A DNA stretch of 64,000 nucleotides from Bdellovibrionota bacterium (GCA_964201665.1 CAXNEW010000004.1:11552-75551), one strand, 5' to 3'. Shown: positions 163-14,603, numbered from the stretch's first letter. Notes: a model not told the origin generated them from the letters alone. A program made the numbers and translations.

Positions 163-1779
163 TTAAATCTGAGATTTAAAATCTTTGGGGATATCAATCG
201 CAATGACTGTGGATTTGGGAAGGGATTTTCCGTCAAAGGCTGGAAAACTTGTTGTTAGTTTCTTTTCTGTTGATTGCGAACCTGGGTGTTGCACTGAGAG
301 AAGCAACTTTTTTCCGCCAGAAACAAAGCAGGGCCCCGTGAACTCTGCATCTGCTGGGGCCTCAGCCACTCGCATAAGTTTTCCTTTTTCTTTGCCAGAA
401 AGAGCTAAGAAAAAAAGAACATTACGCTGGTAGAATTCGTAAGGGGTTAATCCCAATTTTTTCTCAGAAACATCCGTCGTGATCCACAAATTTCCGTCAG
501 CATCGAAAATGAGATTATCGGGGCATGCGAGGCCATTTTCTGGAGAGCCTGCTATGACTTCGCGAAATTTAAATTTTTTATTGTTAGGGCTTTGGCCTTC
601 ACCTTCTTCAATTTCAAGAATCGAACCATAGGGCTTCTCGAATTTTTCAGCTCCCGTGAGAGCGACAAAAACATTTCCAGTTTTGGGATTAAGCGCCATA
701 CCCTCTGGCCTTGCCATCGGAGTTGCGCCCACAAGTTCTGCTGCATATTGGGCAAAAACAAGAACATCGAGTTGAGATTTAAACTCTTTTTGAAGTACCG
801 AATTTTTGGATCTTTCAAGCGGAACCCATTCGCCCTGGCCCTTAATAAAATCCATTTTAGCGCAGTACAGGATTCCTTTTTCTAGGGAGTTTTCACTATC
901 GGCCGCGAACTTAAACAAGGCTCCACCGGTTCTATCCTCGCCCATGTAAACAACAGTCTTGTTATCTTTTCGTCTTACAAACAGGGCCCCTTCGTGCCGA
1001 AACCGACCTAAAGAAACATGTTTTACCGCGTTCCCCGTTTTTGGGTTTATTTCAACCACCCACCCATAGTGCCGAGGTGAAAGTGGAAAATGCCTCCACC
1101 AATCAAACTCGGATTTCTCAAGTATTCTTGTGTTTTTATAGGGTTTAATTTCGCCATAAAAATCTTGGTAGTTTTCTTCACCACTCAAAAACGTTCCCCA
1201 ATCGGTGGTTCCACCGGAACAATTGGCGAGAGTGCCTACCGCGGTTTGTGAGCCATCAATAGTTTCCAGACCACTAAACGGAATTTGTGTACTGCCATCG
1301 AATCTTTTATTTTCAGAACTTTCTAAATCAATCGCAAAACCTTGAGCAGAATCATTTATTTTTAAAAGGGATCCCCCTACCCACTGTCTTTCGCGCGAAA
1401 CTGTTTGCAAATCAGCCACTCGGTCCCAGTTTCCATCAACTAACTGGCGAATATAGGCTTCGTGATTGACCCAAAGATAGCCGCTGCCTGCCCCCGTGTA
1501 TTGCACACCGAGAAAATCAGCACAGTCACCAAAACATAAACCCTGCCCAATTGCGTCGCCTGTTTTAATGAGAGTTTGATATTTAAATCCACGCGCAAGC
1601 TTTAGCTCGTCACTTTCTACTGCCAAACCCTCAAGTAAATTATTTTTAAGTCCCGCACATCCACCCAAAAGAATTGAGGCCCCTAAAAAGGAACCCAACT
1701 CAAAGGCCCGTTCTAAAAATTCGCGCCGAGACAAAACTCGGGGGTCAGATTTTAAAATCATGCGAGCAAAGATACACAA
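163..1779 (-). CDS. phoX: PhoX-family (DUF839) secreted alkaline phosphatase with a Tat-type signal
   Basis: N-terminal twin-arginine motif SRREFLERA followed by a hydrophobic stretch and GGCAG. The PhoX signature region is GTLANCSGGTTDWGTFLSGEENY, and the 538-aa length is typical. The track start is TTG; an in-frame ATG at 1761 is an alternative start. Confidence 0.85.
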   Translation of the reverse strand: MCIFARMILKSDPRVLSRREFLERAFELGSFLGASILLGGCAGLKNNLLEGLAVESDELKLARGFKYQTLIKTGDAIGQGLCFGDCADFLGVQYTGAGSGYLWVNHEAYIRQLVDGNWDRVADLQTVSRERQWVGGSLLKINDSAQGFAIDLESSENKRFDGSTQIPFSGLETIDGSQTAVGTLANCSGGTTDWGTFLSGEENYQDFYGEIKPYKNTRILEKSEFDWWRHFPLSPRHYGWVVEINPKTGNAVKHVSLGRFRHEGALFVRRKDNKTVVYMGEDRTGGALFKFAADSENSLEKGILYCAKMDFIKGQGEWVPLERSKNSVLQKEFKSQLDVLVFAQYAAELVGATPMARPEGMALNPKTGNVFVALTGAEKFEKPYGSILEIEEGEGQSPNNKKFKFREVIAGSPENGLACPDNLIFDADGNLWITTDVSEKKLGLTPYEFYQRNVLFFLALSGKEKGKLMRVAEAPADAEFTGPCFVSGGKKLLLSVQHPGSQSTEKKLTTSFPAFDGKSLPKSTVIAIDIPKDFKSQI

Positions 1780-1819: not shown

Positions 1820-4800
1820 CTAACGTTTGGACGCTGTTGCCAAAAAGGTTTTCGAAGACGCCCTTAGAGCCGTAAGGGCCTGCGCAACTTTTGTTTTCTC
1901 AGTCTTAAATTTTTCCACAACCAGACGGGAATTTTCAATTTCCTGGGCAGTCTCAAACAAACCGGGTGCAAATTCTTCGCTTTCACTAGACCTCAGTAAA
2001 ACTTCTACATACGGCTTTAGGAGTTCTGTTTGCGCCAACAGGGATTTTCTAAATTCAGGATCCAATAAACTTTTTGAATTTTTTTCAAGCCAAGCATCGG
2101 TTCCGGGTCTGTTTTGTGAGCCCCAATACAAACTTAAAAATCGATCAAACAATCGGCTTTTTGGAAAAGTGACATAAGCCAAGCCTAAACTCGCAGCATA
2201 GGCCTCAGCATAGGCTCGCAGACTTGAAACTTCTCCAATATTTTTTCCGAACAGTTTTCGCTGCTCTTTTTTCAATTTTTTTAAGGCCTCACGGAGTTCA
2301 ATTTTGGGCTCTTTCGTTAAAACCTGGCCCAATTCATTTACAAAATCGGCCTCACTTTTTGCCAACTCATTGAGGGCGGTCAAAATGGGCGCCGATTCCG
2401 ACTGTCTCAACTCCTTTGAAAACTCTTGATAGCGGGCGACTTGGCCTTTGATTTGGTTCCAAGTATTTTCGTGTACTGTCATCGCCCATTTCGGATTTTG
2501 CCTTAAAAGTGTGGCAAGGGTTCGAGCGGCCTCTACAAATAGAAAGGGATTAGGAAGGTCGCGATACTTTGCAAAACGATTTACCTGACTCTCTGGAGTT
2601 CCCTCCACAATTCCCCTCTGGCTGAGTGACCAGCTCTCACCAAGCTCTGACCAAAAAGAAAGATTTCTTGAGGGCGATTTCAAGCTTTCAAAAGCCAAAT
2701 TCAAGAGACTGACCTCGCGGGTTTGGAAATCCACACCTAATACATTTCCGTTTACTCGATTTTTCAAATAGGCAAAACACTCTTCAAACTCAGTTAAGGT
2801 CAAAGTGCCCTGGAGTTTTTGATTGCAATCAAGGACCTTCTCAAGAAAATCAACTTGTTCTTGCCCCTCCTGGGCCTTAACCGAGGCTAAGTAATCTTCC
2901 ATCTGGCGGTTGTATTGGCTGTTCTGATGACTCATTTCCTGTTCAAGAGTCTCCACTTTTAAATTTTTTAAAAAATCTGTAGCCTCGCCTTTTAGGGTAT
3001 CCACACTGGCCCTGATTTCACTAGGAAGTCCCAAGGCGTTGGTCCGAATTTCATCTCGTGTAGATTTCAGGGCATCGGCCATCGTACTGATTTTTTCAAC
3101 AAACTCGGTGTGGTTTTTTGCCTGCTGCGAATCGAGAGATTCTTGGGTTTCTTTTCTGTCGGCTGCGATCTGAGCCCGCAAATTCTGCAATTGCTCAACG
3201 GACTCACCCTTATATTGAGCTAAAATTTGATCACGCTTTTCTTGATTTTCTAAAAATTTTTTCTCGAGATCCTTGCTTTGACTGGCTATGACGATGCGAA
3301 GTTCATCGATCCTTTTTTTAAATTCTTCGTTTTGTTTGGATGTGTATCCTGCCGAAGGACCGATTCCCTTTGCAAAACCCGGAGCAATCCAAAGCCCCTC
3401 CTCTAAGGCTCCGAGTTGATTTGAGATTTCGGTTCGGAACAAAGCAAAGGATGTTGCCAAGTTTTCAATTCCTGTCGAAGCCATAGATACTTTTTTCAAG
3501 GCGAGGGTTTGAGTTGCTAAAAGCTCAGCCAAAGCGAAATTTAACGAGGCCAAGTGCTCTATTGAAATATCAGACCCCGGCCCTTCCAAAAAAGACTCGC
3601 CTAAAAGGTTTTTAGAAATTTTGGCAATATCGTCAACAAAAACCTGGGTCTTCGGGGTATAAACAAAATTCGTCGAGTTATGAAATTCCGCCAACGAGGA
3701 CCAAAGATTTTTTAGAACTTCAGTAAACAATTTAACCTGAAAGTTTCGAACGCGGTTCTCGGCAGCGCTGTCAAACAGAACTCTTTCCTTTTTGCTACCG
3801 GCTCTAAGACCCAAATCGGAGTATCTGCCGCCGAGCTCATGAATCCATTCAATGCGTGTGTTGAGGATGGAAATCATTGACGAGGCACGTAAGAGGTCCT
3901 CAATGAATCGGCCTGATTCTTGGTAAACCAAATCTAATTTTAAAGAAGCTAATTGGGTTCTTAAAAAATAGTCCCACGACAAGGACGACAAATAAACTGA
4001 ATCGTTTTTGAGGTCGGCTGGAGGCAAATTCCGATTTTTTTTTCGTTGTGATTCTAATAAATCTTTTCGAAGAGGCTCAATAAGCTCGAAGGCTGCCTCC
4101 GCCCCTGGAAGTTCAAGTTTTGCATTCTTCAAAAACAGATTTTTTGAGTTTTCAGTCCATTGAGGGTCGCTTGATTTTCTATCCAATTGAATTTCATAAA
4201 TTCTACGACCAAGGGATTCGGGCTTTACCTGAGAAAAATAGGAATCCCCCCGAAGAGAATCATCTTCTGGCTTCGGCAGAAAAGCGACTATCATTTTTTC
4301 AAAGTCGATTTTTTTTTCCGGATTTGAAACGCTCACATTGTAAAACTTTTTAAGAAGGGCCGGGGTCAAACTTCGAAGCTCGTCAAACAAATGTTGAGCA
4401 AAAACCAAAAATTCGATCCGAATATTTAGAGGCATGTCCCAGTTAAGTGCCGGATCCATGAACGCCAATACACCCTTTAACCGGCCATCCTGAAACCCTT
4501 TTTGCGCAAAGGATTGTGGACTCTGCCCTAACCATCCCCAAGTTCGAATTTCGGGATCGACGATGTCGTGGGCTCGCTTTGCTAGTACTGCAATGCTTTG
4601 GAAATTTTCTTGGCTCAAACTAGGAAGTTTCGACCAGTCTATCTCAGTAGGGACTCCGGCGAACCTCGCGAAAATTGCAGCCTCAATTTTTGCGAAATCC
4701 GACACTTTAGAATTTTCGCTTGGCGTATCGTCGAGGTTTTCGACTAAAACGGCCACCATGGAAAGTGGAGCGTTTTCAAAATCCTTAAGCACCCTGAGTG

Positions 4801-4978
4801 TGAAAAGATGCTTTTGAAGGACTTGCTCGGGTTCTAAGACCTCTTGAGATGAGGGCTCTCTGGTCTGCAATTGGCGCAAACCCTTTTTCAGAGATGTCGT
4901 CCAGGTACAACCCCATGCAAAACTCAAGAACAACAGTAAAAAGGCATTCCAACTCAAGCCTGTTTTTATTGTTTTCAT
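1820..4978 (-). CDS. Large coiled-coil lipoprotein of unknown function (tandem paralog A, 1052 aa)
   Basis: Long uninterrupted ORF. Signal peptide with a lipobox-like FAWGC. The central region is E/K/Q-rich with a heptad-like character. The N- and C-terminal regions align by eye with the upstream 1069-aa ORF (for example LAKRAHDIVDPEIRTWGW vs LAKRAHDLVDPQIGTLGW, and LVVEKFKTEKTKV vs LVVEKFRTEKAKI). Confidence 0.8.
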   Translation of the reverse strand: MKTIKTGLSWNAFLLLFLSFAWGCTWTTSLKKGLRQLQTREPSSQEVLEPEQVLQKHLFTLRVLKDFENAPLSMVAVLVENLDDTPSENSKVSDFAKIEAAIFARFAGVPTEIDWSKLPSLSQENFQSIAVLAKRAHDIVDPEIRTWGWLGQSPQSFAQKGFQDGRLKGVLAFMDPALNWDMPLNIRIEFLVFAQHLFDELRSLTPALLKKFYNVSVSNPEKKIDFEKMIVAFLPKPEDDSLRGDSYFSQVKPESLGRRIYEIQLDRKSSDPQWTENSKNLFLKNAKLELPGAEAAFELIEPLRKDLLESQRKKNRNLPPADLKNDSVYLSSLSWDYFLRTQLASLKLDLVYQESGRFIEDLLRASSMISILNTRIEWIHELGGRYSDLGLRAGSKKERVLFDSAAENRVRNFQVKLFTEVLKNLWSSLAEFHNSTNFVYTPKTQVFVDDIAKISKNLLGESFLEGPGSDISIEHLASLNFALAELLATQTLALKKVSMASTGIENLATSFALFRTEISNQLGALEEGLWIAPGFAKGIGPSAGYTSKQNEEFKKRIDELRIVIASQSKDLEKKFLENQEKRDQILAQYKGESVEQLQNLRAQIAADRKETQESLDSQQAKNHTEFVEKISTMADALKSTRDEIRTNALGLPSEIRASVDTLKGEATDFLKNLKVETLEQEMSHQNSQYNRQMEDYLASVKAQEGQEQVDFLEKVLDCNQKLQGTLTLTEFEECFAYLKNRVNGNVLGVDFQTREVSLLNLAFESLKSPSRNLSFWSELGESWSLSQRGIVEGTPESQVNRFAKYRDLPNPFLFVEAARTLATLLRQNPKWAMTVHENTWNQIKGQVARYQEFSKELRQSESAPILTALNELAKSEADFVNELGQVLTKEPKIELREALKKLKKEQRKLFGKNIGEVSSLRAYAEAYAASLGLAYVTFPKSRLFDRFLSLYWGSQNRPGTDAWLEKNSKSLLDPEFRKSLLAQTELLKPYVEVLLRSSESEEFAPGLFETAQEIENSRLVVEKFKTEKTKVAQALTALRASSKTFLATASKR

Positions 4979-5019
4979 GCTTCCTTAAACCCCAGTTCTA
5001 TTAAAAAGAAATCCTCAAA

Positions 5020-8000
5020 TTACTTTTTTCTCGCGTTGGCTAAGAAACTTTTTGAGGACGTTTTCAAAAAGTTCAAGGCCTCGCCAATTTTTGCCTTTTC
5101 GGTTCTAAATTTTTCAACAACTAAACGAGAGACTTCGACATCTTGACCCACGTCATTGAGACCGAAAACAAACTCCTCTTCAGGCTGTGCTGAAATTTGC
5201 GCTTGGACATAAGACCTCAGGGCCTGAGTTGTTTCTCCATTGAGCCTTCGAATTGTGGGATCGGAGAAATTTTTCGCTGGACCTAAAAGCCAGGCATCGG
5301 TCCCAGGTCTCCTGTTATCGCTCCAATAAAAGCTAAACATGGGATCAAAAAATCGTGAGTTTGGAAATGTCACCGAAGCCAATCCAAGGCAAGCCGCATA
5401 ACTTTCAGCGTAGGCTCGCAAACTTGAAATTTCCCCCACATTTTGTCCAAAGAGCGTTCTCGGCGATATTTTTAACTTCTTCAAAGCGTCACGGAGTTCT
5501 ATTTTTGGATTCTGGTTATAAACAGAATTAAGTTCTTCAAAAAAACTGGCTTCATGGGTTTTAAGTTCATCAAGTGCAGCCAAAATTGGAGCCGAGTTGA
5601 CCGATCTCAACTCTCGAGACAGGTCTCGAAAACGGGCAATTTGGTTTTTGACTTCATTCCATCCGTTCTCGTCAACCTGAGTTGCAAATTTAGGATGGCT
5701 GCGCAGAAGTTTTGAAAGGGCTCGGGTAGCCTCAACAAAAACCTGCGGGTTGGGCAAATCTCTGTACTTATCAAATTTCTTTGCCCGTCGAGGCCATTTT
5801 CCGGAAGTCTTTGCTCCAGCGGTGCTCGCCCAGCTTTCTCCCATCTCAGACCAAAAAGAAAGATTACGAAGCGGAGATTTTAGAGTTTCAAAACTTATAT
5901 TAAGGGGACTCACGGCGCGGAGGGGATAGTCTATACCAGAATTTTTTCCGCTTATTCTGTTTTTCAAAAACGAAAAACAATTGTCAAATTGACTCTGGGT
6001 CAGAGCCCTCGATTCCATTTGTGCGCAAGCTGAAATGTTTTCAACAAAATCTATGTATTCGCTGCTTTCTTGTTCCCGAACCGTAACTAAGTATTCCTCC
6101 ATTTGGCGGTTGTATTGGTCGTTTTGGCGGCCCATTTCTTCTTCAAGTACTCGGGTCTCTACTCGCCGAACAAAATCAAGGGACTCTTTTTTAAGATCGC
6201 GTGCGCCTGCCCTGAGTTCATCGCCAACCTGCTGAGCTCCGGCCGTAAGTTCATCCTGAACTACCTGAGCACCAAAATTGAGCTCATCGCGCGTCTCCTT
6301 AAGTGTTTTGGCCACCAGTGCCAGTTGTTCAGTAAGGGCAATTTGCTGCTCCAAGGCCTGTTGGTTGAGAAAGCCCTTGAATTTATCTCGGTCGTCAGCG
6401 AGCTCACTTTTTATTTTTTGGATTTGTTCCTCGGATTCAACTTTGTAGTCTGTCATAAGGCCATCGAGTTTGTTTTGATTTTCAGCAATGCGATTCTGAA
6501 GTTCCTGACTTTGTTTACCGAGTTGAGTTTGAATTTCTTCAACCCTTTGTCTTAAGTCTTTATTTTGCTCGGCAACAGAGTTCACTTGACCCGACACACC
6601 AGCAACTTGGTCCGACACCCCGGCCACTTGCCCGGACACGCCGGTCACCTGTTGAGAGACCGCGGCAACTTGTTGGCTCAACCGACTTTCAGTCGCTGCC
6701 AGTTCAGCTAGAACTTCTTTTCGAAACTGAGCAAGGTTTTCGGTTAACACCGCCACCTGGTCGCCAACCATGGTGATTCTTTTTGTCATGAGAGTTTGGG
6801 TTGCAGAAAGTTCTGCAAGGCTTAAATGCAAACTTGCAATGTGTTCAACAGAAAGCCCCTTGGTCTCTTTTTGCAAAAAAGGATTTTCTAACATTTCGCG
6901 CGTCAGGCGTGAAATATCATCGACATAAACCTTTGTAAGATCAGTATAAGCGAATTCTGTTTGTGTGTGGAATTGGGCCAGGGAAGCCCAGAGGTTTTGT
7001 ATGACCCCAGAAAGAGTTTGAAGGTGAAGATTCCGAATCTCGTTCTTAGTATCAGTTTTAAAAACTATTGTTTGTAGTTCTTGGCCTTTCCCCCATCCTC
7101 GAGAAGCATAATAATCGTAGACTTTTTCAAACTGCGTATTGATCAAAGCAATCATTGAATAACTTCGAACAAGGTCATAAATAAATTTACCAGCTCCGGG
7201 GTGGGCCAATTCTAGCTTTAAGGACCCTATCTGGGTTCGTACAAAAAACACCGAACTTAAATGGGATAAAAACCCCTTATCACGATGGTACTCGACTTGA
7301 GAAGCACGATGCATGTCGGTCGCTTTCAAGTAATACTCCCGCAAAGGTTCAATCCCTAGGAAACTTTGTCGGGCACCACTATTTTCAGTATTCGCATTTT
7401 TGTTAAACCAATCGATGGCATTTTCAGCAGCGATGCCATTCCAATAAGCATCTGTATCGTCCTTCACAAATTTTGCCAAAAATTCTCGTGTAACGGGTGT
7501 GAAGTAACCTTCCCAGCGGGCCAACTCTCCTTTAGGCCTCGGGAGCTCGCTGAAAACTGTTTTCTCAAAATCAGCTTTTTTTTCATCGTTTGAAGAGGCT
7601 AACTCATAAAACTTGTGTGCCAACGCAGGCGCTAAACCTTGCATTTCTTCAAGAATAGAATAGGCAAACATGTAAAACCTAAATCGGTTGTCCGAAGGCG
7701 GAGGATTCACATCATCTTTGGAGTCAAGATCATTCAGTATCCACTTTGTGCGATCGTCAAAGAGCCACCTTTCGGTGATTGTGGGTTGAGAATGACCAAC
7801 CCACCCTAGTGTTCCAATTTGAGGATCGACCAGGTCGTGGGCCCTCTTTGCCAAAGCAGCAATCGTCTTGAAATCTTGAGAAGTCAATCTAGGAAGGACT
7901 TTCCATGTGCCTCGAGAGACTGCTTTCCCTAATCGAGAAACTAGAGCTGACTCAATGCGGATAAATTCCAAAATTTGAGAATTGTCGTTAGAAACACCAT

Positions 8001-8229
8001 CAATTTTTTCAACAAGGGCCGCAACCAACGAGAGCGGAGATTTTTCAAAATCAAAAAGAAGCCTAAGGGCGAAAAAATGTTTTTGAAGAGTTTGTTCGGG
8101 ATCCAAACTTTCCTGAGACGACGGCTTCCGGAACTGGGTTTTTGTTGCCCCTTTTTCGACAGAAGAAGTAAAGGTACACCCACCTGTTATCAAAACAAAA
8201 GAAAGTAATTGAATTTTATTTAATCTCAT
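5020..8229 (-). CDS. Large coiled-coil lipoprotein of unknown function (tandem paralog B, 1069 aa)
   Basis: Long ORF with lipobox ITGGC. It is a paralog of 1820..4978 and contains the heptad peptide repeat QQVAAVSQQVTGVSGQVAGVSDQVAGVSGQVNSV. Confidence 0.8.
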   Translation of the reverse strand: MRLNKIQLLSFVLITGGCTFTSSVEKGATKTQFRKPSSQESLDPEQTLQKHFFALRLLFDFEKSPLSLVAALVEKIDGVSNDNSQILEFIRIESALVSRLGKAVSRGTWKVLPRLTSQDFKTIAALAKRAHDLVDPQIGTLGWVGHSQPTITERWLFDDRTKWILNDLDSKDDVNPPPSDNRFRFYMFAYSILEEMQGLAPALAHKFYELASSNDEKKADFEKTVFSELPRPKGELARWEGYFTPVTREFLAKFVKDDTDAYWNGIAAENAIDWFNKNANTENSGARQSFLGIEPLREYYLKATDMHRASQVEYHRDKGFLSHLSSVFFVRTQIGSLKLELAHPGAGKFIYDLVRSYSMIALINTQFEKVYDYYASRGWGKGQELQTIVFKTDTKNEIRNLHLQTLSGVIQNLWASLAQFHTQTEFAYTDLTKVYVDDISRLTREMLENPFLQKETKGLSVEHIASLHLSLAELSATQTLMTKRITMVGDQVAVLTENLAQFRKEVLAELAATESRLSQQVAAVSQQVTGVSGQVAGVSDQVAGVSGQVNSVAEQNKDLRQRVEEIQTQLGKQSQELQNRIAENQNKLDGLMTDYKVESEEQIQKIKSELADDRDKFKGFLNQQALEQQIALTEQLALVAKTLKETRDELNFGAQVVQDELTAGAQQVGDELRAGARDLKKESLDFVRRVETRVLEEEMGRQNDQYNRQMEEYLVTVREQESSEYIDFVENISACAQMESRALTQSQFDNCFSFLKNRISGKNSGIDYPLRAVSPLNISFETLKSPLRNLSFWSEMGESWASTAGAKTSGKWPRRAKKFDKYRDLPNPQVFVEATRALSKLLRSHPKFATQVDENGWNEVKNQIARFRDLSRELRSVNSAPILAALDELKTHEASFFEELNSVYNQNPKIELRDALKKLKISPRTLFGQNVGEISSLRAYAESYAACLGLASVTFPNSRFFDPMFSFYWSDNRRPGTDAWLLGPAKNFSDPTIRRLNGETTQALRSYVQAQISAQPEEEFVFGLNDVGQDVEVSRLVVEKFRTEKAKIGEALNFLKTSSKSFLANARKK
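6584..6688 (-). repeat. In-frame 21-nt tandem repeat (about 4-5 units) inside paralog B
   Basis: Plus-strand units are acttgacccgacacaccagca / acttggtccgacaccccggcc / acttgcccggacacgccggtc / acctgttgagagaccgcggca / acttgttggctcaaccgactt. They encode 7-aa units of the VSGQVAG type. Confidence 0.85.
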
Positions 8230-8235
8230 GTGCCC

Positions 8236-8631
8236 TCACTTTTTTGATGCCAAGAGCTCGGCCAATGAATTGAGTTCAGATTCAAGAGCAAGTTCACCCA
8301 GCGAATAGCCTTGCACAGTGGCATCCCCTCGGGCCCCCTTTGCCACAAGGAATTTGGCAACATCTTCCTTTCCCTCAGCCAGGGCAACCATAAGAGGATT
8401 TAAAATCACGCCGTCAACTTCCACACTTTCATTCAAATCCGCTCCCTCCGCCAATAACTTTTTCACCCCTTCAAGGTCACCAAGCCCAGCAGTCAAGCTT
8501 AACTCCCCGACCGGAATCCCGGGCTTGGCCTGAGTACGCGGCGGCTCAACCACCACAACTTTTTTAACAGGTGTGTATTTCATGCAAGCCCCCAAAGAGA
8601 CTAAAGCACTTAAATAAATAATTTTTTTCAT
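8236..8631 (-). CDS. Small ankyrin-repeat lipoprotein
   Basis: Signal peptide plus lipobox SLGAC. Ankyrin-like consensus is visible in GDLEGVKKLLAEGADLNE and NPLMVALAEGKEDVAKFLVAKGA. Confidence 0.7.
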   Translation of the reverse strand: MKKIIYLSALVSLGACMKYTPVKKVVVVEPPRTQAKPGIPVGELSLTAGLGDLEGVKKLLAEGADLNESVEVDGVILNPLMVALAEGKEDVAKFLVAKGARGDATVQGYSLGELALESELNSLAELLASKK

Positions 8632-8648
8632 TTTAATTTTTCCTCAAT

Positions 8649-9071
8649 TTATTTTTTTCCGCTTGGATCAGCGGCAATGGCGACCTGTTTAATTCCCATT
8701 TCTCTAACTAAATCAACAAGAGCTAAAACTTGGCCGTGGCGCGCGTCTTTATCGGCAGCCACTATGGCATCAGAGAGTGGGTCAGAATTGAGCGCTTTAA
8801 GAATTTTGGGTTCCAGGCTTTTAAGATCGGCTATGTCTTCAGAACCTAGTTTAATTTGTCCATCGGCCGTTACAAAAAATCTCAAGGTGACGTGGTCAAT
8901 TTTTTCTGCCGAAGTGGCCTTGGGCAATTGAACCCGAACACCTGATTGGTAAACCACGGGAGCAGCGATCATAAAAATAATCAGAAGAACTAAAGTGACA
9001 TCCACAAAGGGAGTCACGTTAATTTCTGAGATTGAGTCATCACCGCCCGAATCTTTTGCACCACCGGCCAC
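8649..9071 (-). CDS. exbD: ExbD/TolR-family biopolymer transport protein
   Basis: Characteristic N-terminus INVTPFVDVTLVLLIIFMIAAP, a single TM segment, and 140 aa. It lies immediately downstream of the ExbB-like gene. Confidence 0.85.
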   Translation of the reverse strand: MAGGAKDSGGDDSISEINVTPFVDVTLVLLIIFMIAAPVVYQSGVRVQLPKATSAEKIDHVTLRFFVTADGQIKLGSEDIADLKSLEPKILKALNSDPLSDAIVAADKDARHGQVLALVDLVREMGIKQVAIAADPSGKK

Positions 9072-9073
9072 AA

Positions 9074-9703
9074 TTATTTCTCCGCCGTAATTAAAGCAGC
9101 CACACCCTCGACTCGAGTCATAACAGCCTTAACTTTTTTATTGAAATAGTTGAAATAAAACACCGCTGGAATCGCAACCATTAGGCCCACAGCGGTTGCC
9201 ACGAGGGCTTCAGAGAGGCCAACGCCGACAGTCTGAATGCCACCACTACCACCCTCGCCCGAGCCTCCACCTAAATCATGAAAGGCGCGAATAATTCCAA
9301 TGACAGTTCCAAAGAGTCCTATAAAGGGCGCGTTGTTTCCGAGGGTTCCAAGGATGCCCAAAAAACTTTCAAGCTTCAGGCGCTCTGAAGTTAAAAGTGC
9401 AGAAGCTCGCTTGTGGGGTTCAGCTCCACCTACAAGACTTTTCAAAACCCGAGTTTCAACACAAGGATACTGCGAGGCCCAGGTTTCAACCGACTTGCCA
9501 AGGTCAGCGGGTTTTTTTCCGCCCTCAACCCAGGCTGATAACTGATCAGTCCAAAAACGCGCACCGACTTTTTCTTGGGCCGAAAGTGAACGCATACGAT
9601 TTAGGATAATGCCCACAACCAAAACGGCGAGCGCAAGTAGCAACCATAGAACCCACTCTGAACCTAACTTTAAGAAAAACTGAAACAATCCATGAATCAA
9701 CAT
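9074..9703 (-). CDS. exbB: MotA/TolQ/ExbB-family proton channel
   Basis: Conserved segment NAPFIGLFGTVIGIIRAF and C-terminal TM segment ALVATAVGLMVAIPAVFYFNYF; 209 aa. Confidence 0.85.
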   Translation of the reverse strand: MLIHGLFQFFLKLGSEWVLWLLLALAVLVVGIILNRMRSLSAQEKVGARFWTDQLSAWVEGGKKPADLGKSVETWASQYPCVETRVLKSLVGGAEPHKRASALLTSERLKLESFLGILGTLGNNAPFIGLFGTVIGIIRAFHDLGGGSGEGGSGGIQTVGVGLSEALVATAVGLMVAIPAVFYFNYFNKKVKAVMTRVEGVAALITAEK

Positions 9704-9774
9704 TAAAAAACTCCTTCTTTTAAAAATCTAAACTTTTTTTGTTTATTAATTTTTTTAAATAAATAATGACTGTC

Positions 9775-10917
9775 TTACTGTGCAAAAAATCGCTCCCCTT
9801 TTAATAAAATCCCTTCAGCTCGGGGATCCACCCTTAGGCTTCCAAGAATTTCTTGAAGTCCCTGCTCAAGGACTTCAATTCCAGCGTCCGTGTAAGAACC
9901 TGTTGATTTAAATTTAATATCACCCAATCGACCATTTTTTTGAACCGTCGCTTGCCAGTTAACAGTCACTGAAAGAGTTCGATCAACTTTTAGAGCCCGA
10001 TCAAAAACCTGGGTCATTCGAGAGTTTTGGGAATCAAAAAGTTTTCTAATTTTAAGTTCGTCCTCTGAACTGAAACCTCGGCCTGCTCCTTTAAGATTGA
10101 TATCAACCTGGGCTGAATTCACGCGTCCGGATTTAACTTGCGCAAGTTGGTTCTTCATTTCTCCGGTAGCTTTGGCTAAGGCCTCAGCTCCCTTTGCAAC
10201 TGCTTGAGCCCCACCACCGGTTTGAATCTTAACCCCTGGACCCGAAGAAACTCTCTGACTTAAGTTTGAAAGCTGAGAAGCTAGCCCTTGAATTTTTGAA
10301 AGGTCGCTCGAAACCTTGTCCGTGACTGTTGCCGACTCATCGTAGGAACGTTTTCCGCGGAAGGCCTGTTCTGCAAGGCTCACAATAATTCCGGCGGTTT
10401 CTTTTGAGATTTCAGGAATCGTTTCAATAACGGGCACAGGCTCGCTTTCTTCAGTAGCGATTTTTTCTGTTTTTTCGCGGCTAAATTTTAAAAAATTTTG
10501 ACTCAATCCAAATGTGAGCCCCAAAGAAAGCAAAACAAGTAGCCCGAGCCCCCAGAGCAAATCCCGTCTCAGTTTTTCTGTTTTAAAGGTCGAAATCTGC
10601 CAACCTAATTTTCGTCTTAATGCCCTTAGTATAAGGGCTTCCGAAAAATCGGCCCCAGTTACTCGGTAAGTGCCAAAAATTGAAAGCTCGACTGAACTTG
10701 AACTTGAACCCGACAGAGTTTTCCAGCCGGTCGAATACATTTTTTCCACTAAAAGTGGGCCGGGCCCGCTCACATTCAAAATTAATTTCTCGCCCTTTAC
10801 ACTCACATTTAATTTAGACTTTTCTTTTTCTCCTGCAAGAAATTCAATTTTTGGATTCTCATAAACATCAAATGGGCTCCGAGTTGCATCTAACCAGATG
10901 CCAAATGTAGAGCTCAT
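9775..10917 (-). CDS. Membrane-anchored protein with a TonB_C / AgmX-PglI-like C-terminal domain
   Basis: Cytoplasmic N-domain, one TM segment (LLWGLGLLVLLSLGLTFGL), a low-complexity linker, and a C-terminal region of about 90 aa (MTQVFDRALKVDRTLSVTVNWQATVQKNGRLGDIKFKS...LEQGLQEILGSL) matching the TonB_C/AgmX pattern. An ATGA overlap joins it to the upstream gene. The domain call is by eye only. Confidence 0.55.
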   Translation of the reverse strand: MSSTFGIWLDATRSPFDVYENPKIEFLAGEKEKSKLNVSVKGEKLILNVSGPGPLLVEKMYSTGWKTLSGSSSSSVELSIFGTYRVTGADFSEALILRALRRKLGWQISTFKTEKLRRDLLWGLGLLVLLSLGLTFGLSQNFLKFSREKTEKIATEESEPVPVIETIPEISKETAGIIVSLAEQAFRGKRSYDESATVTDKVSSDLSKIQGLASQLSNLSQRVSSGPGVKIQTGGGAQAVAKGAEALAKATGEMKNQLAQVKSGRVNSAQVDINLKGAGRGFSSEDELKIRKLFDSQNSRMTQVFDRALKVDRTLSVTVNWQATVQKNGRLGDIKFKSTGSYTDAGIEVLEQGLQEILGSLRVDPRAEGILLKGERFFAQ

Positions 10918-13292
10918 CTTGTGTTACCTCCATCAATTTTAATTTCGGGCTGGGTTAATTCCTTTTCCAAATTCTCAAACTGGCTTTTATAAATTTGTGG
11001 AAGAAATTTTAGAATCGTAGAATCACTTTCGATAACTTTAAGCCCAGGCTGCCTAACCGTGGATTCCACATTGTCTTGCCCCATGTCGATCACACGGGGT
11101 TTTTCATCGGACAAACTCCCCGGTTGAATTTTTATTTTTGAATTTTTTGTATTTTCACTTTGGGGCCCCCGGACAGTCTCACTCAAAGTCTCAAGCTCAC
11201 TTGCTATTTTGGCCATTTCCTGGGTGAAGGCCATTTTTTCGGGTTCTCTTAAAACTTTGGGGGCCACAATAGATTTAATTTTTTTGGCAGCTTGTTTTTG
11301 GTGGGAACTTACAATTGTTGTCGCAATTGTAGCCATGCGTTTATGAAACCAGGGGCCTTCAGAAACAAAACTCACAAGATTTTGTGATTTTTTAACTAAG
11401 CCTGTAAGGGCTGCAACAAATTTATCTGAAAGGGGATTCAAGGCTAGGCCCAAATATCGGCTTGAGTTTTGTTCTAAACTTTCGAGTTTTTTAAAATCCT
11501 TTGCCCAATCCGAAACCAAAACATCTTCGGGCAAACTTGAAAAACTCGAACGTTGCGAAAGGACTCCTTTTCCACTTTCAATATTTGCCACAATTTTAAG
11601 GACAGTCTCGATTTCAGTTCCTGAAAACTCAAAAGTTAAATTCGAGTTACTGCGCTCGCCTAGCACTTTTCTAAGGGCCTGATTTGAAACCTCACTCAAA
11701 ATGGAAGCGAAACCGGGTTGGTTTTTAAGAGCGGCTCGAAACTCCAGGCGGTGTTTCCAGATCCAATCGGGTCGCCCCTTTTTTAGAGCCAAACCCGCAA
11801 GTCCAAAAGCATCGACCGGAGAAGACCATTTCAAAGTATCAAAAAACTTTATAAAAAGTTTGCCCGAAGGATCGATCTCGTCGACCTCGCGACTTAAAAA
11901 TTCGGTCCAAATCCAAATTCGCCTTTTTTCTGCCTTCTCATCGGCTAAGACACCTTCAGCAGGCAAATAGTTCTCAAGAATTTTCTGACGTGATGTTGAA
12001 TCTAATTCAGCAATTAAATTTTTAGCCTCAGAGGATAAAAGAATCTCAAGAATTTCAACCCACTGCCCGCTTTCAAAACCTCGCAAAGGTTTTGGAGCCT
12101 GCGCCATAAAAGATTCAAAAATTCTTTTCAAATCTCCCTGACGCTGCTCAAGGGGTAAATTTAAATTCTTTGCAGCCAGGACAGATTTTTCACAAGCTCG
12201 AGCCACACTTCCCACAATGCCTGCCAAGGCGGGGTCTTCCTTTGAGGCCTCCGAATACTGCAAACAAGATTTAGAATATTGATTTTGATCAAAATAAATT
12301 TCGGCTAGCGGCAAACGGTTGCGGCCAATAAGAGCAATGGCCTCAAACGAACTTTGAAGTTCTTTTTTTAGATTGCCTCCACCTGGCGATCGATAGCACC
12401 TCACTAGGGATTCAAAAACCAAAGGAGAGTCCAAACTCTGCGCCTGTAGGCCTATCGGGAACCAATCCAAAATAGAACAGGGCCCGGAGAGAATTAATTT
12501 TTCGCTTGCCGCCACACCCTCAAGAACCACAAGTGACAAAATTCCTTCACGGACTTTTAGTCGAAAATTTTCTAAATCCTGAGGCGACCGACTCGAGATA
12601 TATCGAACTCCAAGTTTGAGACCGAAAAGAAACTCCTCACGACTTTGAGGTTCAAGGATAAGTTCTGCAATTTTTGAATCAAAACGAGTCACTCCATTTG
12701 CAACAACCTCTGGCCAAACCCGCCCCAAATCTCGAAATATCAAATTTCCTAAAAACGAAGAGCGATTTTTGTTTTTACTAAGTTCAAAAATACTCATCCA
12801 ACTGTCCAGCGCCGCAACAGGGTTTTTTTCGTTTACCTCTATCCATCCCAATCGATAGGATGCGTATTCCGTATCCATGGGATTATTTATTTTTTTTAAA
12901 TTTAAATAACTTTCTCGAGCCTCTTTAAGTTTTCCTAAATCATAGCGAACATCACCCAGTTTTCGAAAAATTCTCGACAATGTTTCGCCGTTCTCATTTT
13001 TTAATCGCGCAACAGAATTTAAATATTCTAAAAACTGGCTTTGAGTTTCATTACCAAGAGTATCCGTAGGGAGGGAACTCAGAAGTAAGGCCGCATCAAA
13101 TTTTTCACTTTCATTTTGGGTAGTTGCAAACAATTGCTGAAGTTTTTGAATACCCACAACTCTTTGGGTTTCAAGAAGCGACAATATCTCAATAAGCCTT
13201 TCATCGGCCTGACTACGCAAGGGATTGAGGGCAATTGCAAAAAACACAACCCAACACAAAGGACTCTTCTTTTTGAAAAAAAGTGAAATCAC
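10914..13292 (-). CDS. Large exported helical-repeat (TPR-like) protein
   Basis: Long ORF. I prefer the in-frame GTG at 13292: it forms a GTGA overlap with the stop of the upstream gene and yields a classical signal peptide, (V)ISLFFKKKSPLCWVVFFAIALNPLRSQA. TPR-like segments include KLKEARESYLNLKKINNPMDTEYASYRLGWIEV. The track start at 13385 would overlap the upstream gene by 97 nt. Confidence 0.65.
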   Translation of the reverse strand: MISLFFKKKSPLCWVVFFAIALNPLRSQADERLIEILSLLETQRVVGIQKLQQLFATTQNESEKFDAALLLSSLPTDTLGNETQSQFLEYLNSVARLKNENGETLSRIFRKLGDVRYDLGKLKEARESYLNLKKINNPMDTEYASYRLGWIEVNEKNPVAALDSWMSIFELSKNKNRSSFLGNLIFRDLGRVWPEVVANGVTRFDSKIAELILEPQSREEFLFGLKLGVRYISSRSPQDLENFRLKVREGILSLVVLEGVAASEKLILSGPCSILDWFPIGLQAQSLDSPLVFESLVRCYRSPGGGNLKKELQSSFEAIALIGRNRLPLAEIYFDQNQYSKSCLQYSEASKEDPALAGIVGSVARACEKSVLAAKNLNLPLEQRQGDLKRIFESFMAQAPKPLRGFESGQWVEILEILLSSEAKNLIAELDSTSRQKILENYLPAEGVLADEKAEKRRIWIWTEFLSREVDEIDPSGKLFIKFFDTLKWSSPVDAFGLAGLALKKGRPDWIWKHRLEFRAALKNQPGFASILSEVSNQALRKVLGERSNSNLTFEFSGTEIETVLKIVANIESGKGVLSQRSSFSSLPEDVLVSDWAKDFKKLESLEQNSSRYLGLALNPLSDKFVAALTGLVKKSQNLVSFVSEGPWFHKRMATIATTIVSSHQKQAAKKIKSIVAPKVLREPEKMAFTQEMAKIASELETLSETVRGPQSENTKNSKIKIQPGSLSDEKPRVIDMGQDNVESTVRQPGLKVIESDSTILKFLPQIYKSQFENLEKELTQPEIKIDGGNTR

Positions 13293-13882
13293 AAATTCAC
13301 TGCAGCTTTCTGAAGCTCGCATAGATTTTGAGTTCGTACGCGAATAAATCTTAAGGGTGCTTTGGAGGTTCCCAAAAGCGGCCATTTGCGAATACGACTC
13401 CCCTCAACTTTCGCGATGTCTGCTTTTTTTGCTGTAGGCGGAATATATTTACTACTCAAACTCACCAAAGAATTTAGAGCTTTGCCGTAGGGGTCGTTTT
13501 TATTCAACAGGTCCTGCGTCACGGATTGGGCTTTTTCGGTATAACAAAATTTTAAAAGTGCAAGTGAATGCAATCGATCAGCAACTTCGCTACACCCCGA
13601 ACAGGCATAAAAAATTCCAAAAAGCCGGTCCCAATCTTCGGCTTTGTAGGACAGCTTGGCATATTCCCCTAAAAGATATTTTTTTTGTTCTTCTTGTGCA
13701 GTTTGATCAACAAGGGAGGCAACTTCATCCAAGACATCTTGAGACTGTTTTGTATAGGTGCCGTTTGTGCCATCTAAAAGGGATTCAAAACTTTCAAATT
13801 TTTGGTTGGGGCCACTGGACTGGCAGGCGCCAATGGCAAAGCAAACAATAGAAAACAAAAGCCCTGTCGCCTGTGACTTCAC
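13289..13882 (-). CDS. Lipoprotein of unknown function (first gene of the ExbBD-containing operon)
   Basis: Signal peptide with lipobox AIGAC; 197 aa; co-directional with and coupled to the downstream gene. Confidence 0.65.
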   Translation of the reverse strand: MKSQATGLLFSIVCFAIGACQSSGPNQKFESFESLLDGTNGTYTKQSQDVLDEVASLVDQTAQEEQKKYLLGEYAKLSYKAEDWDRLFGIFYACSGCSEVADRLHSLALLKFCYTEKAQSVTQDLLNKNDPYGKALNSLVSLSSKYIPPTAKKADIAKVEGSRIRKWPLLGTSKAPLRFIRVRTQNLCELQKAAVNL

Positions 13883-13958: not shown

Positions 13959-14603
13959 GTGAAACTAAATTTGTTTATATCAACAGGAATTATTTGTGCC
14001 TTTGGAATCTCGATCCCTTGTTTTTCTCAAGACAAGGCTGGGCAAGGAAAATCCACTGACAGTTACCAAGAAATTTACACGGCCGTAAGAGACCAAAACC
14101 CTCTCTTGGACTTTAATCTCGCCTACCGATCAGGGGTTTCAAACCCCTTTAACTATTCGCACGGAATTGATTTTGCTTTAAGATTTTACTTTGAGAATAG
14201 ATTTTACACTCATGCAAGTTTTACCCAACATTTGGCAGGTTTTAATAATTTTACCGGCGCAGCACGCGCCGATCTTATTGAGTCCGGGTTTGGAGCCACT
14301 GTGGCCCAAACTAAAAATAAATATTCATTAGGTGGTGGAGTGGTTTTTTTAGATGGGGTTTTGAATTTTTTTGGCGCAAGAGTGGTTCCCTTTGATGTGT
14401 CTATGGGCTTGGAGCTTGGGCAAACCCGCTATGACACCCCAGAGACGCGATTTTCTTTTGGACCCCACCTTGATTTCAGAGGCTTGTTTGCAAAAAATTT
14501 TGGAGTGGCTCTCACCGCGGCTCCAATCTTTGAAGAGAGCCAACAATATGGAACCCTGCTTTACACCGACGTATCGTTAGGAATCTTCGCGCGATTTTAT
14601 TAG
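13959..14603 (+). CDS. Small outer-membrane beta-barrel protein
   Basis: An in-frame GTG at 13959 gives the signal peptide (V)KLNLFISTGIICAFGISIPCFSQ. The protein has alternating beta-strand-like composition and a C-terminal aromatic terminus LGIFARFY. The longer track ORF from 13758 is antisense to 13289..13882. Confidence 0.6.
   Translation: MKLNLFISTGIICAFGISIPCFSQDKAGQGKSTDSYQEIYTAVRDQNPLLDFNLAYRSGVSNPFNYSHGIDFALRFYFENRFYTHASFTQHLAGFNNFTGAARADLIESGFGATVAQTKNKYSLGGGVVFLDGVLNFFGARVVPFDVSMGLELGQTRYDTPETRFSFGPHLDFRGLFAKNFGVALTAAPIFEESQQYGTLLYTDVSLGIFARFY

Follow-up and report, generated by a model that had tools for sequence, protein, structure and literature searches.

A candidate compact Agl/Glt-like envelope machine with lineage-specific lipoproteins in an uncultured member of the Bdellovibrionota

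Introduction

The closest described relative of the locus examined here, a run of eight closely packed genes in a 64,000-nucleotide stretch of DNA from a Bdellovibrionota bacterium (GCA_964201665.1 CAXNEW010000004.1:11552-75551; the whole stretch is hereafter called the window), is the Agl/Glt machinery of Myxococcus xanthus, which is encoded by aglRQS, gltD-E-F-G-H and gltK-B-A-C (Luciano et al. 2011, PMC3169522). In the same phylum as the window, Bdellovibrio bacteriovorus HD100 carries four ‘expanded core complex' sets (Bd0413-0420, Bd0828-0838, Bd1474-1481 and Bd2369-2377; supplement of PMC3169522), for which the gene order gltC-gltB-gltG-(gltF)-gltD-aglS-aglQ-aglR is given. In every Myxococcus and HD100 set, a single AglR is listed together with two TolR-like genes, AglQ and AglS (PMC3169522). 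Glt clusters are thus known in Bdellovibrio, yet the motor, the adhesins and the force path of gliding in the phylum have still to be identified (2026 review, PMC13104615).

The genome that contains the window is a bin of 1.81 Mb in 95 contigs, 68% complete, from an uncultured lake-water bacterium; the window lies on contig C4. A sequence-only reading of the window had proposed that the eight genes, which encode an ExbB/ExbD motor, a membrane-anchored protein, an exported protein with tetratricopeptide repeat (TPR)-like features and several lipoproteins, follow the logic of the Agl-Glt machinery. The comparative analysis presented here upholds that proposal with family-level profile support, the gene set matching gltD/E-gltF-gltG-barrel plus aglR/Q/S (PMC3169522), and the locus is probably a divergent, compact paralogue of an Agl/Glt-type envelope-spanning machine. 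Seven of its parts form a module whose gene content and order are conserved across the phylum; profile comparisons point to homology of its transducer tail, TPR protein, small secreted protein and barrel with Glt components, and the same genome carries Tol, canonical Glt and exbB-exbD-exbD sets elsewhere. With a single TolQ and a single TolR, a stator that forms a separate clade, a weakly scoring AgmX tail and a fixed gene order, the module is, as far as its sequence can tell, a distinct and compact Glt-like class with lineage-specific orphan lipoproteins.

Results

A seven-part module recurs in one order across the phylum

A word-indexed protein search with the 380-residue membrane-anchored protein of the locus leads, at 63% identity, to L031, a 30-kb contig of a close relative. 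Its genes follow one another in the order mnmA, β-barrel (divergent), lipoprotein, TPR protein, AgmX-like protein, exbB, exbD, ankyrin lipoprotein, a giant lipoprotein of 994 residues and a convergent unrelated gene. Outside this lineage, C-terminal matches of a two-sequence AgmX-like profile, run over 400 other genomes of the phylum, locate the module in 15 (~4%), distributed over families f4, f13 and f23. The recurring order, seen in full in those loci whose contigs are long enough, comprises a barrel (210–250 residues), a lipoprotein (165–210), a TPR protein (650–860; homologues in 14 module loci), a small protein with a signal peptide (76–119), an AgmX-like protein (247–438), exbB and a single exbD. 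With a profile built from 16 sequences, the 400 genomes yield no additional full-length member. The module is missing from all 19 other genomes sampled from family f1, to which the window belongs, and scans with the two-sequence AgmX-like profile for more members of the lineage return nothing.

The module encodes a GltG-like transducer candidate

The 380-residue protein shows a cytoplasmic β-rich N-terminal domain, one transmembrane helix (residues 120–138), a helical linker that is not proline-rich and a putative AgmX/PglI-type C-terminal domain (~284–380). Because a run of Arg and Lys residues precedes the helix, the N terminus is placed in the cytoplasm, in agreement with the topology already proposed for this protein. 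The sequence-only reading had described its C-terminal end as TonB_C/AgmX-like, and it is the second half of this label that has profile support at family level. TonB_C (PF03544) matches neither the 380-residue protein nor any of the 16 members of its family, there is no TolA_III match in Pfam, and Pfam as a whole gives no match for the 380-residue protein. By contrast, the model of the AgmX/PglI C-terminal domain, NF033768, matches the protein with 22.3 bits (E-value 1e-4), below its cut-off of 40, and is matched by 10 of the 16 family members, all of them likewise below the cut-off (best E-value 1e-6); one member matches gliding_GltG. Profile–profile comparison with hhalign aligns the family with canonical AgmX/PglI tails of the same phylum at a probability of 89.6% (E-value 2e-6) and with full-length canonical short GltG-like proteins at 84.8%, the alignment covering the tail only. 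The 16-sequence profile also picks up the tails of open reading frames (ORFs) of 600–700 residues, which is the size of canonical GltG and GltJ. The search for an FHA domain that the earlier reading had recommended comes out negative, with no Pfam match in any of the 16 family members. Taken on its layout and tail, the protein is a candidate for a GltG-like transducer.

The transmembrane helix of the family carries an S-x-x-x-H motif, whose role in motor contact has been described (PMC12204202). All 14 distant family members retain it; the corresponding residues are G…L in the window (10500-10560, minus strand) and S…L in L031. Loss of the His could mean that coupling to the motor is altered or weakened. 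Several family members retain the two Cys residues that the canonical tail has; the window protein has lost both. An AlphaFold2 model of the 380-residue protein, computed from two sequences, is of low confidence (predicted local distance difference test, pLDDT, 43.5) and predicts the tail as α-β-β-α. Foldseek comparison with the protein data bank (PDB) finds nothing below an E-value of 0.07 for the two modelled proteins, this one and giant lipoprotein B, and a sequence-profile search of the PDB with the AgmX-like family finds nothing.

Periplasmic and outer-membrane partners resemble Glt components

The 792-residue protein encoded upstream of the transducer candidate has a Sec-type signal and is exported, as the earlier reading had it, and the part of the description that fares less well is ‘TPR-like', as the TPR_2 and TPR_11 matches are weak and lie below cut-off. 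Aligned by hhalign, its 12-member family (A8) resembles the genome's own GltD-like protein of 1,231 residues (probability 89%, E-value 2e-6, 89 columns), a kind of likeness that can be generic between TPR proteins.

The last ~65 residues of the TPR protein form a CglF/GltF-like segment, which is 32–41% identical to the separate secreted ORFs of 76–119 residues that 12 other loci have after the TPR gene and before the AgmX-like gene. These small proteins have a signal peptide and the motif VIDLGxxxVEGxxRRP, and two of them match NF033764 (gliding_CglF) at E-values of 0.004 and 0.025, reaching 17 bits where the cut-off is 90. As the sequence of the small protein makes up the C terminus of the TPR protein in both the window and L031 and is a separate gene in the 12 other loci, the two genes have been fused in this lineage.

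The small outer-membrane β-barrel gene that the sequence-only reading had placed divergently from the operon shows a weak match to TIGR04565 (OMP_myx_plus; E-value 2e-4, 21.5 bits), and its homologues reach 33.9 bits (3e-8) and 24.9 bits (2e-5), for a cut-off of 60. This weak match points to a possible barrel of the GltA/B/H type. The same-position gene of L031 is closely related (Table 1), and the barrel adjoins the module in several other genomes. The 197-residue lipoprotein, with the lipobox AIGAC, has no family match; weak homologues occupy the same position in three other loci (L050, L057 and L059).

The stator stands apart from TolQ and from an AglR-like copy

ExbB and ExbD, correctly named in the sequence-only reading, match PF01618 (3e-28) and PF02472 (1e-25), and the best NCBIfam models are TolQ for the former and TolR for the latter. 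The operon has this one ExbD/TolR gene, whose product contains the transmembrane Asp (FVDVTL, read from the sequence). The presence of this residue, together with the 89–90% identity of the two proteins to those of L031, indicates a working stator under purifying selection. A single exbD is found in all 15 related loci as well, as against two TolR-like genes in Agl sets.

In a tree of ExbB proteins, those of the module form their own clade (support 100/99). TolQ proteins make up a distinct clade (99/99), and the AglR-like exbB-exbD-exbD copy on contig C19 of the same genome lies at a great distance. Some lone exbBD pairs from other families also fall within the module clade. The window ExbB groups with members of family f13 and not with its own family f1, whose other sampled genomes lack the module, which suggests that the module was transferred horizontally into the lineage or widely lost among its relatives. 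In nearer relatives (G033, G025, G040, G022 and G026) the orthologous exbBD pair stands alone among unrelated genes. In the first three of these (loci L024, L025 and L026), the lone pairs belong to the same clade as the module stator and lie between sulfatase-like and methyltransferase genes, beside a run of FHA-domain and T2SS-F-like genes; AgmX-like and TPR partners are missing there.

Four other envelope loci are found in the genome. Contig C10 carries tolQ-tolR-tolA-like-tolB. Contig C16 (19761-29074) carries a canonical Glt G1-like cluster encoding proteins of 243, 517, 1,231, 131, 688 and 283 residues, among which the 688-residue GltG has an FHA sequence, read directly, and an AgmX tail scoring 100 bits on NF033768. 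A barrel gene followed by exbB-exbD-exbD occupies contig C19 (269-3952), and a lone TonB_C gene lies on contig C35 (3035-3970); its product of 311 residues has an S-x-x-x-H transmembrane helix, and the gene has no exbBD of its own. Since separate Tol, canonical Glt and exbB-exbD-exbD sets are present, the window locus represents an additional system.

These data bear on two other explanations of the locus. The first is a second Tol-Pal-like system, which would serve envelope integrity or division by tethering or constricting the outer membrane, without any surface movement. It would be in keeping with the TolQ and TolR models of the stator, with the 47% identity between the C-terminal half of ExbB and the genome's own TolQ on C10, with the single TolR as in Tol, and with the presence of a TPR protein (CpoB-like), a lipoprotein and a TolA-like bitopic protein. 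However, the Tol genes are already accounted for on C10 and the module ExbB clade is distinct from TolQ. In line with the earlier remark that Tol-Pal partners are missing, no tolA, tolB, pal or cpoB homologue is present in the window. The AgmX/PglI-type tail and the CglF-like and OMP_myx_plus-like partners are hallmarks of Glt, and the rarity of the module in the phylum is unfit for a housekeeping role. We therefore consider a Tol-Pal-like system improbable.

The second explanation, an ordinary ExbBD energiser that serves the orphan TonB-like gene on C35, whose receptors would lie in the third of the genome that the bin lacks and whose neighbours would be unrelated, appears very improbable. 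That the 311-residue TonB_C protein is encoded without its own exbBD would fit such an arrangement, as would the incompleteness of the genome and the orphan exbBD pairs of the same clade that related genomes hold in unrelated contexts. Yet the TonB-dependent receptor family PF00593, which the sequence-only reading had noted as absent from the window, has 0 matches in the entire 1.81 Mb, where controls do match and where the bin is 68% complete. Genome-wide, TonB_C matches are confined to C35 and C10. The seven-part module, exbBD included, keeps one order over three other families, its genes overlapping or tightly spaced, and the 380-residue protein directly upstream of the stator genes is itself a TonB-like transducer candidate. 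The outcome by which the earlier reading would have been overturned, a standard TonB system with its receptor elsewhere, thus finds no support. With the caveat of 68% completeness, these comparisons set the locus apart both from the cell's Tol system and from a TonB system that energises receptors.

Ankyrin and giant lipoproteins are confined to one lineage

Behind exbD, the operon continues with genes for three further lipoproteins, which the sequence-only reading had singled out as not among the known components of the Agl-Glt system; they are found in this genus-level lineage only. The 131-residue ankyrin lipoprotein (lipobox LGAC) matches Ank_2 with 28.6 bits (cut-off 27.3) and Ank with 24.9 bits (cut-off 21.1). 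Its L031 counterpart (L031 12272-12690) has an in-frame TAG between ALAHD and DQVGQF, with homology continuing after it, and could be a recent pseudogene, or the stop could be a sequencing error or a polymorphism. The gene is absent from the other module loci.

The two giant proteins, A and B, have lipoboxes, like the 197- and 131-residue proteins, and are indeed two giant lipoproteins as the earlier reading had proposed. They are paralogues with 44% identity, and each shares 26–27% identity with the single 994-residue copy of L031, compared with 60–90% for the neighbouring genes; the giants diverge far faster than the genes around them. Being closer to each other than to the L031 copy, they probably arose by a duplication younger than the split between the window and L031 lineages. 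Strain-level hypervariability was considered and rejected, as contigs from two other lakes are 92–98% identical in the giants, like the rest of the locus, at low coverage.

An exhaustive HMMER search of 1.84 billion representatives with the giants returns only the query itself, its paralogue and the L031 copy, the other matches (P0006-P0009) being coiled-coil or repeat noise. No homologue is found in 40 relatives, and neither a word-indexed search of 5.8 billion proteins, run with one sequence as well as with a three-sequence profile, nor pattern scans of genome and metagenome collections reveal a further relative. Giant A has no family, PDB or fold match. An AlphaFold2 model of giant B, computed from three sequences, is all-α with four long helices of 50–75 residues at positions 461–720; its pLDDT is 43.7, and confidence is moderate in the C-terminal third only. 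The helices of the giants have a hydrophobic periodicity of 3.5–3.7 residues. Residues ~480–620 match apolipoprotein A-IV (3s84; E-value 8e-8) and the Pfam Apolipoprotein family (E-value 3e-4; 21 bits for a cut-off of 90), a likeness that is most likely compositional, while the N-terminal domain of ~450 residues and the C-terminal domain of ~350 residues match nothing. Within giant B, a 21-nucleotide in-frame tandem repeat (6583-6648, minus strand; 3.1 copies, 75% matches) encodes heptads of the VSGQVAG type that paralogue A lacks. Another 21-nucleotide repeat, less pronounced, lies at 6091-6130.

The check on co-occurrence proposed in the earlier reading shows that the giants do not accompany the ExbBD pair across genomes, as they are present in the window and L031 and absent from the 15 other module-bearing genomes. 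Unrelated large lipoproteins are nevertheless encoded directly behind exbD in L051 (522 residues) and L059 (415 residues) and upstream of the module in L056 (1,064 residues), L050 (588 residues), L046 and L047 (~500 residues each), L048 and L055, in lipoprotein-rich genomes where such neighbours may also arise by chance. Aligned with these proteins by hhalign, the giants reach a probability of 0.2%.

Two further observations concern the surroundings of the module in other genomes. In two genomes of family f13 (L048 43-5674 and L055 13485-18957), a set of three genes lies divergent from the module, encoding proteins of ~786/753, 657/632 and 432/442 residues, the first of them a lipoprotein; these may be further module-associated parts. 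L055 also carries, at 4301-8731 and convergent to exbD, tandem genes for paralogues of 718 and 732 residues that are 51% identical and have signal peptides, which makes this another module locus flanked by a duplicated gene for a large exported protein.

It follows from this distribution that the giants could be dispensable. Accepting that the module is Glt-like, the ankyrin and giant lipoproteins might be functionally unrelated passengers, quickly evolving proteins of the surface or periplasm, at a variable 3′ end of the operon. Such an origin would be consistent with the absence of their genes from all 15 other module-bearing genomes, with the low identity of the giants to L031 (26%, when the neighbours retain 60–90%), with downstream neighbours that differ (PhoX in the window, MntP in L031) and with the in-frame stop in the L031 ankyrin gene. 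Yet both known genomes of the lineage keep the ankyrin and giant genes directly behind exbD, with spacers of 6–19 nucleotides and no terminator-like site in the gaps, and the operons of other loci include or adjoin large lipoproteins of unrelated sequence, which suggests a recurring pairing of module and lipoprotein. In the window, the ankyrin gene and the first giant gene follow the preceding genes by 17 and 6 nucleotides and have Shine-Dalgarno sequences, and their placement is the same in L031, which favours lipoproteins linked to the machine. We thus regard passengers as unlikely; the ankyrin and giant lipoproteins are probably lineage-specific accessory parts or cargo.

Organization of the locus

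The features of the locus are collected in Table 1. All eight ORFs are found where the sequence-only reading had drawn its array of closely packed minus-strand genes (1820-13882), and the two overlapping junctions that it had listed are visible on direct reading. The GTGA junction at 13289-13292 reads TTGTGA, the TGA of the 197-residue lipoprotein gene overlapping the GTG start of the TPR gene, and the ATGA junction at 10914-10917 reads AGATGAGC, the TGA of the TPR gene overlapping the ATG of the 380-residue protein gene. Spacers measure 2 nucleotides between exbB and exbD, 17 between exbD and the ankyrin gene, 6 between the ankyrin gene and lipoB and 41 between lipoB and lipoA; the longest gap in the operon, of 71 nucleotides and AT-rich, separates the AgmX-like gene from exbB. 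A Shine-Dalgarno-like GGAG or GAGG precedes every start. A scan for promoters and terminators gives the same counts as shuffled sequence, with no site within the operon gaps, and Rfam has no match in the window. With this arrangement the eight genes may well be co-transcribed. Three independent lake-water metagenomes contain contigs that span parts of the locus, with 92–100% identity over the giants and the module, and the locus is therefore real DNA and not an assembly artefact.

Table 1. Features of the window and identity of their products to those of L031
Feature	Position in window	Strand	Basis and remarks	Identity to L031
Lipoprotein gene, 197 aa	13289-13882	minus	ORF call; first gene of operon	60-62%
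Exported TPR-like protein gene, 792 aa	10914-13292	minus	ORF 10914-13385 = 823 aa; 792 aa from GTG	67%
CglF/GltF-like segment	10917-11120	minus	Last ~65 residues of TPR protein; motif RVIDMGxxxVESxVRQP...ELTQPE	
Bitopic protein gene with AgmX/PglI-type tail, 380 aa	9775-10917	minus	ORF call	63.5%
exbB (TolQ/ExbB-type stator channel subunit), 209 aa	9074-9703	minus	ORF and PF01618	90%
exbD (TolR/ExbD-type stator plug subunit), 140 aa	8649-9071	minus	ORF and PF02472	89%
Ankyrin-repeat lipoprotein gene, 131 aa	8236-8631	minus	ORF and Ank_2	64% (in-frame TAG in L031)
Giant lipoprotein B gene (lipoB), 1069 aa	5020-8229	minus	ORF call	26-27%
Giant lipoprotein A gene (lipoA), 1052 aa	1820-4978	minus	ORF call	26-27%
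Small outer-membrane β-barrel gene, divergent	13959-14603	plus	ORF opens at 13758; start likely near 13959	64%
mnmA				86.5%

Beyond the operon, a gene for a PhoX alkaline phosphatase (PF05787, 5e-84; Tat-like SRREFL signal) lies on the same strand at 163-1779 (minus), 40 nucleotides behind the gene for giant A. It is not kept in L031, where a convergent MntP gene is found instead.

Discussion

By analogy with AglR–GltG and ExbB–TonB, a TolQ/TolR-type proton-driven stator made of ExbB and one ExbD in the inner membrane would act on the GltG-like bitopic protein, whose AgmX/PglI-type periplasmic tail, together with the TPR/GltF-like protein, would link the motor to a platform in the outer membrane. 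This platform would consist of the small β-barrel and the 197-residue lipoprotein. The machine would then do mechanical work at the envelope or the cell surface, in the form of gliding-type movement or movement of surface material, rather than TonB-type import or Tol-Pal tethering. The three lipoproteins appended behind exbD may serve as accessory parts or cargo, for example as an adaptor and a surface or periplasmic rod or adhesin.

A bolder version, which is doubtful at present, holds that the giants, docked via the ankyrin lipoprotein, are the force-receiving output of the Glt-like machine, a motor-driven class of rod or adhesin not seen before, with a role like that of CglB in the Glt machinery of Myxococcus, and that across the Bdellovibrionota the module class is paired with interchangeable, fast-evolving lipoprotein ‘cargo' cassettes. 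If true, it would provide a handle on the adhesins and the force path of gliding in this phylum. Were the lipoproteins outputs of the machine, the locus would offer a small and tractable system for how TolQR-type motors get rewired to new surface cargo; were they not, its annotation as neither a TonB nor a Tol system would still be useful, given a class that ~4% of the sampled phylum genomes carry and that stands repeatedly beside unrelated large lipoproteins.

Several points weigh against an Agl/Glt-type machine with dedicated lipoproteins. All matches to Glt-specific models are below their curated cut-offs (22 vs 40, 17 vs 90 and 21–34 vs 60 bits). There is one TolR gene only, when every described Agl set has two, and the stator is nearer to the TolQ and TolR models than to the genome's AglR-like copy. 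The transducer family has no FHA domain, and the conserved transmembrane His of that family is lost in the window lineage. Neither the giants nor the ankyrin gene occur in the 15 other module-bearing genomes, and the ankyrin gene of L031 has an in-frame stop. With the genome 68% complete, a receptor may lie outside the assembled part, and the structural models are of low confidence (pLDDT 43–44). Set against the shared parts and their conserved order, these points leave a divergent, compact paralogue of an Agl/Glt-type machine as the probable identity of the locus.

How the locus relates to known systems can be specified part by part. Apolipoproteins A-I, A-IV and E resemble the giants in the long amphipathic helices of their centre only (3s84), and differ in that the Pfam score falls far short of the cut-off and the terminal domains of the giants match nothing. 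TonB-ExbB-ExbD and TolQRA-TolB-Pal share with the locus a 5:2-type proton-driven stator with a conserved transmembrane Asp and a single-pass transducer with a cytoplasmic N terminus and a C-terminal α/β domain. Unlike them, the locus has no TonB_C or TolA_III match, no Pro-rich linker, no S-x-x-x-H and no TolB or Pal; the genome shows no receptor, and its Tol genes lie in a cluster elsewhere.

Closer to the locus are the sets of B. bacteriovorus HD100, which, compared by gene lists, differ by their two TolR-like genes and another gene order. They consist of the same kinds of parts, with GltG-like proteins of 376–408 residues in two sets, and show an operon-like packing with stator genes. The canonical short GltG-like proteins of relatives score ~110 bits on NF033768, as compared with 23 bits here; the AgmX/PglI domain is ubiquitous among these relatives, which fits placement in the Bdellovibrionota. 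Comparison with the Agl/Glt clusters, which the sequence-only reading had called for, shows parts that are shared and features that set the module apart. The window has one TolR instead of two, a stator clade apart from the genome's AglR-like copy, a GltG-like protein with a weak AgmX tail and no FHA domain, fused TPR and GltF-like parts and family-model scores that are all below cut-off; equivalents of GltI, GltJ and GltC are not recognised, and an AglZ/MglA cytoplasmic link is not evident. Despite these differences, the locus has in common with the Agl/Glt machinery of Myxococcus a stator of the TolQ/TolR type and a small lipoprotein, and it encodes candidate counterparts of the bitopic protein with its AgmX/PglI tail, the large exported TPR protein, the small secreted CglF/GltF protein and the OMP_myx_plus barrel. 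The order of TPR protein, small protein and GltG-like protein in the window mirrors that of gltD/E, gltF and gltG.

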